From positions 1 to 42,938 of IMG/VR virus record IMGVR_UViG_2541047938_000003: a stretch of DNA of 42,938 nucleotides; one strand, given 5' to 3'. Source of the DNA: a virus (Duplodnaviria > Heunggongvirae > Uroviricota > Caudoviricetes). Of the stretch, positions 16,916 through 19,371 are shown one piece after another. The notes beneath the pieces were generated by a model. The model had not been told where the DNA came from. It saw only the letters and a program-made list of their open reading frames with translations, and searched no databases. The position numbers and the translations under genes are program-made. Positions within the stretch are counted from its first letter, which is position 1. The number at the start of each line of letters is the position of its first letter.

Positions 16916-17605
16916 ATGAACAGTCAGCAACTGGAATACGTACGTCAGCAGCTCATTGTGGCGACCGCAGACCTCAGCGGGGCGACGAAAGGGCAGCTGG
17001 TCGCTTTCGCCGAGAACGCTCAATTCACCGCGACGGCGCGCAGCCGGGGGCGGAAGAAAGTCTATGACGCGCAGAAAAAGCGCATGGTTAACCCCGACGG
17101 CCCGCCGATGAGCGGCAGTCAGTCACGCGCCAAGGGCTCGTCAATCGCGCTGGTGAGTCCGGTAGAGTTCGGCACCGCATCATGGCGCCGCGCTGTCCTG
17201 TCTCTGGAAGACCATCAGAGAGCATGGTTGCTCTGGACCTACAGCGACAATATCTGCTGGGAGCTCCAGGAGACGATTGTCCGCTGGGCGTGGGAGCAAT
17301 TCAACCAACAATTTGCAGGTGTGCGCATTGCAAAGAAAACGGTAGATCGCCTGCGTCAGCTCATCTGGCTGGCGGCTCAGAATGAAAAAGCAGATATTTC
17401 AGGCAGGGAAGGCTGCTTACGTTATGCGCCAGCTTCTATGATCGGAATTAAACCCGATAACTGGAGCCATAACTATTCTGGCTACTGGCGGGCTATGGGG
17501 GAAATTTTCCAAGGATTGGACAGACAAGCTTTGCTGACGGTTTCTCGATCACGTTCACAACAAAAAACGACTTTTTCGCGGCATGGTATTGCAAAAGTCA
17601 ATTAA
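16916..17605 (+). CDS. Putative late-gene antiterminator (Q-like)
   Basis: 229 aa, last gene before terminator/tRNA/lysis region; family resemblance is memory-based and weak. Confidence 0.5.
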   Translation: MNSQQLEYVRQQLIVATADLSGATKGQLVAFAENAQFTATARSRGRKKVYDAQKKRMVNPDGPPMSGSQSRAKGSSIALVSPVEFGTASWRRAVLSLEDHQRAWLLWTYSDNICWELQETIVRWAWEQFNQQFAGVRIAKKTVDRLRQLIWLAAQNEKADISGREGCLRYAPASMIGIKPDNWSHNYSGYWRAMGEIFQGLDRQALLTVSRSRSQQKTTFSRHGIAKVN

Positions 17606-17671
17606 ATAGCATATATTTCATGTAAATCTGATATCGTCGCCATAGCTTCGTAGGTCGACAAAGAATTAAGA

Positions 17672-17696
17672 GCCTCGCCATCGTGCGGGGCTTTTT
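17672..17696 (+). terminator. Rho-independent terminator (candidate tR'-like)
   Basis: GCCTCGC-CATCGT-GCGGGGC stem (one G-U pair) followed by TTTTT. Confidence 0.55.
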
Positions 17697-17703
17697 CATT
17701 TCA

Positions 17704-17778
17704 GGGTCAGAAGCACAGCGGTTGTGCGTTCGGCTGTTAACCGAATGGTCGAAGGTTCGAATCCTTCCTGTCCCGCCA
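17704..17778 (+). tRNA. tRNA-Asn-like gene (anticodon GUU), phage-encoded
   Basis: Hand-folded cloverleaf: D-stem GCAC/GTGC, anticodon stem TTCGG/CCGAA with loop CTGTTAA, T-arm GAAGG-TTCGAAT-CCTTC, 3' GCCA; one U-U mismatch in acceptor stem. Confidence 0.55.
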
Positions 17779-17813
17779 AATTCGCCGGTCTAGTTCAGTG
17801 GCAGAGGTGGTAA

Positions 17814-18239
17814 ATGCCGAGCAAAGATTACTATCTTAATCGAAGGGCTAGGCTTGCTAAGGCCGTGGAAAAGTTGGGTGGTCGTTGCGCGAGTTGCGGA
17901 TCCGAATATTCGCTTCAGTTTGACCACATAGACCCTTCCACCAAATCAGCAAATGTAAGCGAGATGCACTATCACTCAGATTCGGTGTTTTATGCTGAGG
18001 TTGAAAAGTGCCAACTACTATGTTCTGCATGCCACATTCAGAAAACCAAATTTGACCTTAGCTACTTAGTAGCTGGTGAGCTGAATGGTATGAGCAAGCT
18101 AACAATGGACAGCGTCCAGTTCATCAGAGAAAACTACATTCCACGACATAAGGTTTATGGAGCCAGAGGGCTAGGGAGAATGTTTGGTGTAACACATCAA
18201 ACAGTGCTTTCAGCCTTAAATGGCGAAACCTGGAAATAA
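17814..18239 (+). CDS. HNH homing-type endonuclease
   Basis: CASCGSEYSLQFDHIDP ... CQLLCSACH matches the HNH zinc-finger nuclease pattern; AT-rich; flanked by tRNA-like sequence. Confidence 0.75.
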   Translation: MPSKDYYLNRRARLAKAVEKLGGRCASCGSEYSLQFDHIDPSTKSANVSEMHYHSDSVFYAEVEKCQLLCSACHIQKTKFDLSYLVAGELNGMSKLTMDSVQFIRENYIPRHKVYGARGLGRMFGVTHQTVLSALNGETWK

Positions 18240-18656
18240 GCTGCGCGTCAGAGGTTCGATTCCTTTGCCCGCTCCAGTAAAAGCTTTCCAGTCTGCGATG
18301 ATGGGTTCCCCGGAGTGACTGGAAAGCGACCTGGTTTTGAATGGGCGCTGCTTTTTGCAAAATTGCTGTGTGAAAATACTGACCTTTGGGTTCAGCGCTC
18401 ATCCAAAAGCATCACGTGAATTCACCAACGCTCATGTACTCTCCAGGAAACAATAAGTGATTCTGAAAAGTTCCGGTTAGATATTGCCCCGGTCACCGGA
18501 TGATTTTATCTTTTGGTTCGTGGTGAATCCCCCTATGCGGCGGGGCGTCCAGTCAAACTTTTTTGTCCAGGTTTGTTTGCGCGGAACTAGTCGGCTGGGG
18601 CTGTTCCACCGGGAGGCACCCGGCGCCACCTCCTTGACGGTATTGTTATTTTTCAT

Positions 18657-18683
18657 GCCTGTTCGTCCGAGCAGGCTTTTTTT
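18657..18683 (+). terminator. Candidate rho-independent terminator
   Basis: GCCTG-(10 nt loop)-CAGGC followed by seven T; short stem so moderate. Confidence 0.4.
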
Positions 18684-19092
18684 GCCCGCATTATCTTCAT
18701 TGAAAACTGGCAACTCAGAGAATCATCCAAATTAAAAAAGCAGCAACGAGAGCGATTACTAATACATTCTTCGCTTTTTCTCTTCTGCTGGCCTTCACAA
18801 AAGGATTCACTATCCGGCAGTGGCTACACACAAGTGATTCTGGGTTAATTAACTTTCCGCAGTAGGGGCAGGGCTTGATAATCATTGGTACTAATTAAGT
18901 TGTGAGAACGTAGTCTCATTTAACCACATTTATCGAGTTGTTTTACTAATGGTCTAGTTATTTCAGACATATTCATCAATTTCAGGCTCACGGGAATCAT
19001 CCGCTACGTGCTTTGTTGATAAATCCAGCCCGTGAAGCCTGACCCTTTTCAAACACACACACAGCGCCATCCGAAAAATCGGAGGTGAGGCT

Positions 19093-19371
19093 ATGACCAG
19101 AATGAGCACCATTTACAGCAGACTTTCATATGGAACAGGAACCACGCTGACCGGCTGCGGTGTATCAGCGAAGGCATATGCCGAAACAGCAAAAACAGCA
19201 AAAGAGGTGTCCTGGATGTTGGCCGACAGAATTGCAGGGTTAAGCCTGAGCGACTGGGCAATTATTGTCGGTATCGCATGCACTGTTATTACCTGTGCAG
19301 TGAACTGGTATTTCCGCTGGAAAGAACGGGAGGATCGTCGCAATGGCTATGCCACCAAAGCTGAAGAATAA
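19093..19371 (+). CDS. Holin, S21-like pinholin
   Basis: GGAGGTGAGG RBS; TM segment and C-terminus resembling phage 21 S (…YF..REDRR…); dual-start-like MTRMST. Confidence 0.7.
   Translation: MTRMSTIYSRLSYGTGTTLTGCGVSAKAYAETAKTAKEVSWMLADRIAGLSLSDWAIIVGIACTVITCAVNWYFRWKEREDRRNGYATKAEE

Follow-up and report, generated by a model that had tools for sequence, protein, structure and literature searches.

A known prophage small RNA family, a small antisense gene and a holin control region between Q and the lysis genes of an Escherichia coli lambdoid prophage

The DNA analyzed here is the IMG/VR virus record IMGVR_UViG_2541047938_000003, which over its whole length of 42,938 nucleotides (the window) is a lambdoid (lambda-like) prophage of E. 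coli. We studied the interval 18240-19092, which is flanked upstream by the Q gene and downstream by the holin/SAR-endolysin/spanin cassette, all encoded on the plus strand. A first-pass annotation made from the letters alone had seen no convincing coding sequence in this region and had considered either decayed cargo or a noncoding RNA. The interval turned out to be mostly ordinary: it holds a member of a known prophage small RNA (sRNA) family, STnc100, in its known slot, plus a small gene on the opposite strand and a control region in front of the holin gene. Its noncoding RNA content is biology that is already known. What is added, all of it read from sequence, are a corrected RNA start, a pseudoknot, a small protein gene that had been overlooked, and a conserved element in front of the holin gene. 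Four complete E. coli chromosomes contain the interval with 99.6-99.9% identity, and among 5426 complete genomes, 7 cover 80% or more of it; in strain KL53 it is 99.9% identical. Comparison with relatives shows a mosaic with at least four recombination joints, and the AT-rich stretches noticed before are real, with the GC content down to 0.35-0.41 across 18650-19000 and an AT-rich stretch at 18850-19000.

The STnc100-family small RNA

Membership in the STnc100 family was established with the Rfam model RF02076, which matches 18495-18687 on the plus strand over its full length (model positions 1-206) with 71.7 bits compared to a gathering score of 47 (E-value 1.7e-13, whole window). The terminator-like hairpin at 18657-18683, which the first-pass annotation had pointed out, is the 3' end of this sRNA, and the suggestion of a noncoding RNA was therefore right. 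The family is also present in near-identical E. coli prophages and in phage HK639. For the comparisons we used 138 copies with both core boxes (GUGGUGAAUCC and CACCGGGAGGCACCCGG) from the window and 123 other loci, namely 119 IMG/VR stretches plus E. coli and HK639 loci. The copies were collected by a pattern scan of IMG/VR for the core boxes instead of BLAST, as a BLAST search of phage records for distant sRNA relatives gave 12 weak matches and was insensitive for STnc100. In every case with a recognizable Q or lysozyme, the copy has Q on its upstream and lysozyme on its downstream side, and the strand is the same. A full-text literature search with the core box sequence found no paper.

Other members of the family have been described before. 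EDL933 carries 11 STnc100 copies, which are transcribed, and one of them was positive on a Northern blot (PMC5331693). A copy 75 nucleotides 3' of stx2B overlaps the Hfq-bound sRNA EcOnc27/sRNA103 (PMC12370729, PMC12711010, PMC7873438), and the enteropathogenic E. coli sRNA PasD is an STnc100 relative with an Hfq RIL-seq interactome (bioRxiv 10.64898/2026.05.13.724894). Convergent sRNA pairs located 3' of pR' in the moron site were reported for eight Sakai prophages (Tree et al., 2014; PMC4104026). The earlier comparison of the interval with the cargo slot of Stx phages was apt, as Stx2 phages carry the STnc100 family just 3' of stx2B (PMC12370729, PMC12711010, PMC4104026). In some lambdoid contigs of IMG/VR, tandem arrays of three to five STnc100 units are found between Q and the lysis genes, with one terminator per unit (L007 342-1038, L012 1702-2340, L022 4349-5513); in L011 and L022 the arrays have an isrI match next to them.

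The 5' part of the sRNA forms a structured domain of 110 nucleotides (18520-18629), as seen from the Rfam match and the alignment. It is closed by helix P1, in which GUGGUG at 18520-18525 pairs with CACCAC at 18624-18629, and it contains the P2 hairpin (18529-18545), P4 (18583-18592 with 18599-18607) and P5 (18609-18623; CCGGG-AGGCA-CCCGG). In addition, CCAGUC at 18549-18554 pairs with GGCUGG at 18593-18598 in the loop of P4, creating a pseudoknot. In the window copy P1, P2, P4, P5 and the terminator are all part of the minimum free energy fold, and the pseudoknot is present by direct reading.

To support this structure, pairs were counted on a sequence-only alignment of 86 distinct STnc100 cores. 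In the proposed structure 91.6% of the cells are paired, compared to 42-49% when the partners are slid by one to three columns. Compensatory changes were found in all six pairs of the pseudoknot and in all eight pairs of P4, whereas P1 and P5 are invariant through the way the set was collected and are uninformative for covariation. In an alignment-free test, at least six contiguous pseudoknot pairs were found in 64 of 83 variants, but in only 5.7% of shuffled sequences. The pair sets among the variants include CCAGUC/GACUGG, CUAGGC/GUCUAG, UCUGGUUA/UAACCAGA and AAUGGCG/CGCCAUU. On the strength of these comparisons we conclude that the 110-nucleotide 5' domain contains a pseudoknot. The structure line of RF02076 has no pairing equivalent to it, and a pseudoknot is beyond what the RNAalifold structures of the preprint can show; like the start at GUGGUG, the pseudoknot is our reading of the family.

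A sigma-70 promoter is predicted on the plus strand at 18484-18512, with TTGCCC (18484-18489) and TATCTT (18507-18512) separated by a 17-nucleotide spacer. It matches 8 of 12 consensus positions and was assigned by its position in the family. A promoter match of at least 8 of 12 occurs in 60 of 101 distinct upstream segments, compared to 5.7% of shuffled sequences. The typical promoter of the family is TTGAC-N17/18-TAAATT, and its -10 element ends mostly 6 nucleotides (5-8) before GTGGTG / GTGGTGAATCC. Because of this conservation at a fixed distance, the RNA probably starts at about 18520 with the first G of GUGGUG, so that the Rfam model of STnc100 would include promoter DNA in its ~25 initial positions. 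An RpoD ChIP-exo signal at the STnc100 copies of Salmonella LT2 (PMC10794520) agrees with independent promoters. Otherwise divergent STnc100 promoters (for example in L003, L005 and L013) keep a GAATG motif in the spacer at about -24 to -20, which may be a protein-binding site. The array-type copies (L007, L012, L022, L026 and similar) have no TTGAC-N17/18-TAAATT promoter and carry an operator-like 16-bp palindrome (ATAAGATTAGTCTTAT or ATAAAGTTAGCTTTAT) 30-45 nucleotides upstream of GTGGTG.

The intrinsic terminator of the sRNA (18657-18683, plus strand) was found by a terminator scan, in the Rfam alignment and in the fold. Its hairpin at 18657-18676 has a stem of eight pairs (five of them G-C) and a loop of 4 nucleotides and is followed by a run of seven T at 18677-18683, U7 in the RNA; in 3.1 kb, only two other terminator-like sites were found. 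Such a terminator lies within 120 nucleotides in 73 of the 138 copies. Among the copies without a nearby terminator, the large variant class that was examined has a conserved noncoding extension of ~190 nucleotides, which ends in a GCCCGCC...GGCGGGCTTTTTT terminator. We considered STnc100 as the leader of a small open reading frame (ORF) in these copies and ruled this out, as the extension is frame-less and has its own terminator. Members of this class (for example L005, L008, L024 and L025) carry …CCTGGTAAATCGGTAGCTCGGACTATTAGG…, and their RNA would have a length of ~300 instead of ~165 nucleotides.

Between the 5' domain and the terminator lies the tail CUCCUUGACGGUAUUGUUAUUUUUCAU (18630-18656, plus strand), which is mostly unpaired in the minimum free energy fold and unpaired in the centroid fold. 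By analogy this single-stranded tail is a candidate seed and Hfq-binding region, as the layout corresponds to the 3' half of Hfq-dependent sRNAs (PMC4104026). Likewise, Hfq binding and regulatory activity of the RNA from the window would be expected from its relatives (PMC4104026, PMC12711010).

The antisense gene and the holin control region

The longest ORFs that overlap the interval have 92, 83, 78 and 56 amino acids. That no long ORF exists between the stop codon of the upstream HNH endonuclease gene at 18239 and the holin start at 19093 therefore holds. The two overlapping opposite-strand ORFs that had been regarded as chance, of 83 amino acids (plus strand, 18484-18735) and 78 amino acids (minus strand, 18477-18713), can indeed be ruled out as genes, since neither has a Pfam match and both lie on top of the RNA gene. 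For the 56-amino-acid ORF on the minus strand (18715-18885), however, the statement that no convincing coding sequence is present does not apply.

This ORF runs antisense to the late operon and ends ~30 nucleotides from the terminator hairpin of the sRNA, on which it converges. The predicted protein, MIIKPCPYCGKLINPESLVCSHCRIVNPFVKASRREKAKNVLVIALVAAFLIWMIL, has a zinc ribbon (CPYC...CSHC) joined by a basic linker to a hydrophobic helix at the C terminus, NVLVIALVAAFLIWMIL, which is a predicted membrane helix. Its homologues form four clusters with 84-96% identity and are found in prophages of E. coli, Citrobacter and Salmonella, always on the opposite strand between Q and holin, with three holin families adjoining; some of them are named DUF2116 family Zn-ribbon protein by NCBI. 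The ORF is intact in five lineages, and the two CxxC pairs, that is four cysteines, are kept in the five aligned DNA copies. The variable sites are distributed 9/9/20 over the codon positions (chi-square p = 0.04), and pN/pS is 0.19-0.28, both relative to the window copy and relative to the Salmonella copy. Of the differences between the window copy and the Salmonella copy, 14 are synonymous and 11 non-synonymous (Fisher p = 5e-5). These comparisons demonstrate that the 56-amino-acid ORF is under purifying selection.

At the Salmonella locus the homology is confined to the ORF (85% identity, compared to 43-54% in the flanks), and the ORF is located upstream of STnc100 and not downstream. Because the order differs and the homology is limited to the ORF, the small gene and STnc100 are independent modules.

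The family assignment of the protein stays below the Pfam thresholds, both for DUF2116 (PF09889; 24.6 versus 26.8 bits) and for Zn_ribbon_3 (23.5 versus 27 bits). PHROGs gave weak matches to families of unknown function only, and NCBIfam and PADLOC gave nothing meaningful; a defence function or a known phage function thus finds no support in these three collections.

A possible promoter of the small gene is the extended -10 motif TGGTTAAAT at 18918-18926 on the minus strand, in AT-rich surroundings (GC 0.35-0.37). The motif reads TGGTTTAAT in the Salmonella copy, where the remaining upstream sequence is unalignable, and it is the only conserved promoter-like feature of the gene. The consensus promoter scan did not call this site. 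Antisense cargo at the Q-to-holin position is common: HK225 (L128, 1252-1662) has an antisense ORF of 137 amino acids in this slot and Louie (L129, 1252-1892) has two, of 138 and 75 amino acids, and the pre-holin element described below is common to both phages.

The most widely shared part of the interval is 18979-19092, which is found with 75-100% identity directly 5' of the lysis cassette in HK225, mEp237, Louie, Gifsy-2 and many Klebsiella phages. It includes a conserved pre-holin element of ~65 nucleotides (18981-19045, plus strand), identified by its conservation across genera. Here, a long hairpin of CAGGCTCACGGG (18983-18994) with CCCGTGAAGCCTG (19029-19041) surrounds a conserved block of 34 nucleotides. 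The element occurs in phages of four genera (E. coli, Salmonella Gifsy-2, Citrobacter and Klebsiella) with differing holins and usually starts immediately after a terminator. Three of the 13 stem pairs show a compensatory change, and the fold z-score is -3.1 for 18940-19095. Rfam gave no match for the element, and a sigma-70 promoter was found in it neither by the consensus scan nor by direct reading. It is also present in L128, L130-L133 and many IMG/VR loci.

Immediately downstream lies the translation-initiation region of the holin gene (19067-19095, plus strand), recognized from the fold and by comparison. In a hairpin of CCAUCCGA with UCGGAGG, part of the Shine-Dalgarno sequence GGAGGUG (19081-19087) is sequestered, and the dual-start motif Met-Thr-Arg-Met comes after it. 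By direct reading the hairpin is kept in relatives by compensatory variants, for example CACCCCG/CGGAGGUG and CACCCGC/GCGAGGUG. We take this arrangement of a Shine-Dalgarno hairpin and a dual start to resemble the sdi-type control of the holin and antiholin starts in the S gene of lambda. The lysis cassette itself begins with the dual-start holin (19093-19371, plus strand; PF16080, phrog_20), followed by a SAR-type lysozyme and a DUF2514 spanin-like gene.

Late promoter and tRNA/HNH segment

The first-pass annotation had placed the interval in the leader of the late operon. The true leader lies further upstream at 17589-17697, where we locate pR'/tR' of the phage from its sequence. The Q antiterminator gene (16916-17605, plus strand; PF06323, E-value 2.7e-71) overlaps at its stop codon with a promoter-like site found by sequence scan, TTGCAA-17-TATATT (17589-17617, plus strand), the putative late promoter. 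Directly 3' of it follows a 74-nucleotide Rfam match to isrJ (17621-17694, plus strand, 68.7 bits), which ends with a hairpin and a U-run, corresponding to the terminator tR' (17671-17697, plus strand). The isrJ RNA looks like the stub transcript from pR' to tR' of phages with a PF06323-type Q, analogous to StxS and the 6S RNA of lambda.

Three unrelated Pfam families of Q (PF06323, PF06530 and PF03589) precede STnc100 units. In each, Q is immediately followed by a promoter and terminator stub specific to that family, and the STnc100 unit comes only after the stub. In the stub of the lambda-like Q a AACGATGGG pause sequence comes after the -10 element, while the PF06323 stub is the isrJ-like unit. 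The STnc100 unit, which is located 880 nucleotides after the Q stop codon in the window, is unchanged behind all three families, and its position is conserved across these unrelated Q types. Since a Q-specific stub precedes it in each Q family, STnc100 is a unit separate from pR' that lies in the path of the late transcript, and a function as pR' leader or as qut-type element was ruled out for the same reason. A unit of the StxS/6S kind has its promoter right after Q and covaries with the Q family; neither holds for STnc100.

Between tR' and the sRNA lies a phage tRNA array (17704-18279), in which tRNA-Asn (17704-17778, plus strand) is intact and the HNH endonuclease gene (17814-18239, plus strand) is followed by a tRNA reduced to its 3' 40 nucleotides. 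This remnant (18240-18279, plus strand) comprises the T-arm, the 3' strand of the acceptor stem and CCA of tRNA-Gly(UCC), and it was identified because it aligns with the 3' end of tRNA-Gly in E. coli FAM21845, where this tRNA is intact and annotated, and with the homologue in HK639; ARAGORN and Rfam called no tRNA at this position. Relatives have tRNA-Ile/Thr/Gly or Asn/Gly in this part, and the HNH gene occupies the position that the remaining part of tRNA-Gly and a tRNA-Thr have in them. Judging from the alignment, the HNH gene took over the site of the 5' portion of the tRNA and left this remnant behind. It is the sole decayed element and lies 5' of position 18331, from which the first-pass annotation had counted the region without genes.

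The remnant is followed by a perfect 11-bp hairpin, GCTTTCCAGTC / GACTGGAAAGC, with a loop of 23 nucleotides (18283-18327, plus strand), which was found in a repeat search. It is located in the spacer that normally comes after tRNA-Gly, and by direct reading its stem is maintained via G-U pairs in FAM21845 and HK639. This spacer (18253-18417) has 92-93% identity to HK639 and 77-83% to other phages with tRNA-Gly, and together with its hairpin it travels with tRNA-Gly in these phages.

Function of the interval

We consider it likely that the interval is a moron slot, in which two small autonomous and convergent genes are followed by the leader of the lysis cassette, and that the sRNA acts in trans via Hfq, with its terminator as a barrier that is overridden by Q. 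The sigma-70 RNA polymerase of the host would start at ~18520 and stop at the terminator (18657-18683), giving an RNA of ~165 nucleotides that consists of the pseudoknotted 5' domain, the 27-nucleotide U/A-rich single-stranded tail and the terminator hairpin with its U-tail. By analogy with its relatives this RNA would be made in the lysogen, bound by Hfq and act in trans through the tail on mRNAs of the host or the prophage. After induction, Q would load onto the polymerase at the late promoter (17589-17617), and the modified polymerase would pass tR', the tRNA/HNH segment and the terminator of the sRNA to reach the holin gene. As read-through by Q would be needed to get there, the sRNA terminator would be a second barrier that keeps the lysis genes silent in the lysogen. 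From the opposite strand the 56-amino-acid zinc-ribbon membrane protein would be made, with its gene ending at the hairpin of the sRNA.

The window copy has much in common with STnc100, EcOnc27/sRNA103 and PasD: the full-length covariance match, the strand, the slot between pR'/tR' and holin, both core boxes and an intrinsic terminator with U-tail. It differs in that it follows a tRNA/HNH segment and not an stx or esterase gene, in its weaker consensus promoter, in the tail CUCCUUGACGG..., which is unlike that of most variants, and in having a protein gene as convergent partner. With the convergent pairs of Tree et al. (2014; PMC4104026) it shares two small convergent units between the late promoter and the lysis genes with one common hairpin. 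However, the antisense unit of the AsxR/AgvB pairs is an anti-sRNA of 51-60 nucleotides with a conserved 3' region of ~42 nucleotides, whereas in the window it is an ORF under selection at the protein level, and AsxR (RF02703) and AgvB (RF02702) gave no match at E <= 1 on either strand of 17500-19200. StxS and lambda 6S are likewise short terminated RNAs from the leader of the late operon; they are produced in the lysogen, and polymerase modified by Q reads through them. In this phage, however, their role falls to the Q-family-specific isrJ-like unit, while the STnc100 unit further downstream is constant. The put RNAs of HK022 and HK639 are also structured RNAs that begin close to or at the 5' end of a lambdoid phage transcript. 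They have ~70 nucleotides and two stem-loops, belong to early operons and make the polymerase read through terminators (PMC9378689), whereas the STnc100 domain has ~110 nucleotides and a pseudoknot, belongs to the late region and is itself terminated shortly downstream. A put-like antiterminator is ruled out by this size, this architecture and the termination of the unit itself.

Several observations weigh against a trans-acting sRNA expressed from its own promoter and against the small gene. The promoter in the window is weak by consensus (8 of 12; TTGCCC, TATCTT) and below that of most relatives. The homology with the prophage copy in NCTC9040 starts at 18520, and the sequence 5' of this position is not common to that copy, which has the better promoter TTGAAA-17-TAAATT; the window copy thus appears to have gained a different, weaker promoter region by recombination at the start site, and its expression is uncertain. 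A target with a direct test is reported for no STnc100 member, as the links to fimZ/espA and stxB come from overexpression or in-silico work. The single-sequence folding energy is unremarkable (z = -0.63), so that the structure is supported by comparison only, and a plain base-pairing sRNA would not usually have helices as strongly conserved in sequence as those of the 5' domain. Including the last P1 bases, the tail has the sequence CACCUCCUU, which is similar to an anti-Shine-Dalgarno sequence, and its possible pairing with the Shine-Dalgarno sequence of the holin gene has an energy of -23.5 kcal/mol. However, when tails were paired with the start of the first downstream gene at 101 loci, cognate pairs reached -18.6 and non-cognate pairs -18.5 kcal/mol without co-variation. 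Targeting of the own holin ribosome-binding site therefore has no support at the level of the family. For the 56-amino-acid ORF, no clear Shine-Dalgarno sequence precedes the ATG, and in the three inspected E. coli genomes the PGAP annotation lacks it.

In another explanation, the 5' domain acts in cis on the late transcript, instead of or besides a role as trans sRNA. It could be an aptamer for a ligand or protein, a processing or stability element, or a polymerase-binding element that tunes transcription or translation into the lysis genes. The compact multi-helix fold with its covarying pseudoknot and its near-invariant junctions and loops is more like aptamers and protein-binding RNAs than like seed-bearing sRNAs, and with any type of Q the domain is without exception encoded on the strand of the late operon, after tR' and before the lysis genes, in some phages in tandem arrays. 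However, a strong terminator follows in the examined copies, at a distance of either 40-70 or ~190 nucleotides, these terminators differ in sequence and have no conserved alternative pairing with the 5' domain, and relatives yield discrete sRNA-sized products that bind Hfq. From the fixed distance of the promoter it follows that the 5' end at P1 is important, and no riboswitch or ribozyme of Rfam matches even at E <= 1. We therefore regard an action in cis as unlikely, if still worth considering. Slightly less probable, in our view, is that the 5' domain is a dedicated binding module for a protein, RNA polymerase or a small molecule, which would give the late and lysis region an input independent of Q, with the Hfq-type tail being secondary. 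This idea comes from the domain being closed by P1 and locked by the pseudoknot from the first transcribed base on, and from junctions that are near-invariant across phages of Escherichia, Salmonella, Citrobacter and Klebsiella with unrelated Q. If it is true, the tandem arrays of three to five units would be a dosage device or a decoy.

The RNA might also be a mere by-product, and the unit a second terminator against leaky transcription of the lysis genes in the lysogen. A strong terminator does lie between the tRNA/HNH segment and the holin gene, the Q-to-lysis intervals of lambdoid phages often contain several terminators (four are annotated in HK639), and StxS began as a by-product of termination (PMC7547250). 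But StxS itself proved functional, and a unit that only has to terminate would have no need of a dedicated promoter at a constant distance or of a 110-nucleotide structure kept by compensatory changes across genera, which makes this explanation improbable. The first-pass annotation had left room for decayed cargo, and for a simple conserved spacer as the finding that would speak against its own reading. The missing long ORF, the tRNA remnant at 18240-18279 and the mosaic structure would fit such a region without product. However, the Rfam match above the gathering score, the purifying selection on the small ORF, the covariation in the fold and the pre-holin element conserved across genera contradict a spacer. 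Near and distant nucleotide searches of phages and complete E. coli genomes gave no remnant of and no residual similarity to any annotated cargo gene, only a few coding sequences named hypothetical protein, and the chance ORFs match no family. A spacer or decayed cargo is therefore very hard to defend.

For the STnc100 family, the pseudoknot supported by covariation provides a concrete fold for an abundant prophage RNA. The start proposed here also touches the disease-associated polymorphisms at +90 and +103 after stx2B (PMC12711010), which may be promoter rather than RNA changes, because the Rfam model would include ~25 nucleotides of promoter. The 56-amino-acid zinc-ribbon membrane protein and the pre-holin element are conserved and lie beside the genes for lysis timing. 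For annotation this means that Q-to-holin gaps in lambdoid prophages should not be taken as empty leaders, as they typically contain a Q-specific stub RNA, at least one sRNA gene of the STnc100 type, small genes on the opposite strand and a conserved leader of the lysis cassette, all of which are missed by gene callers.

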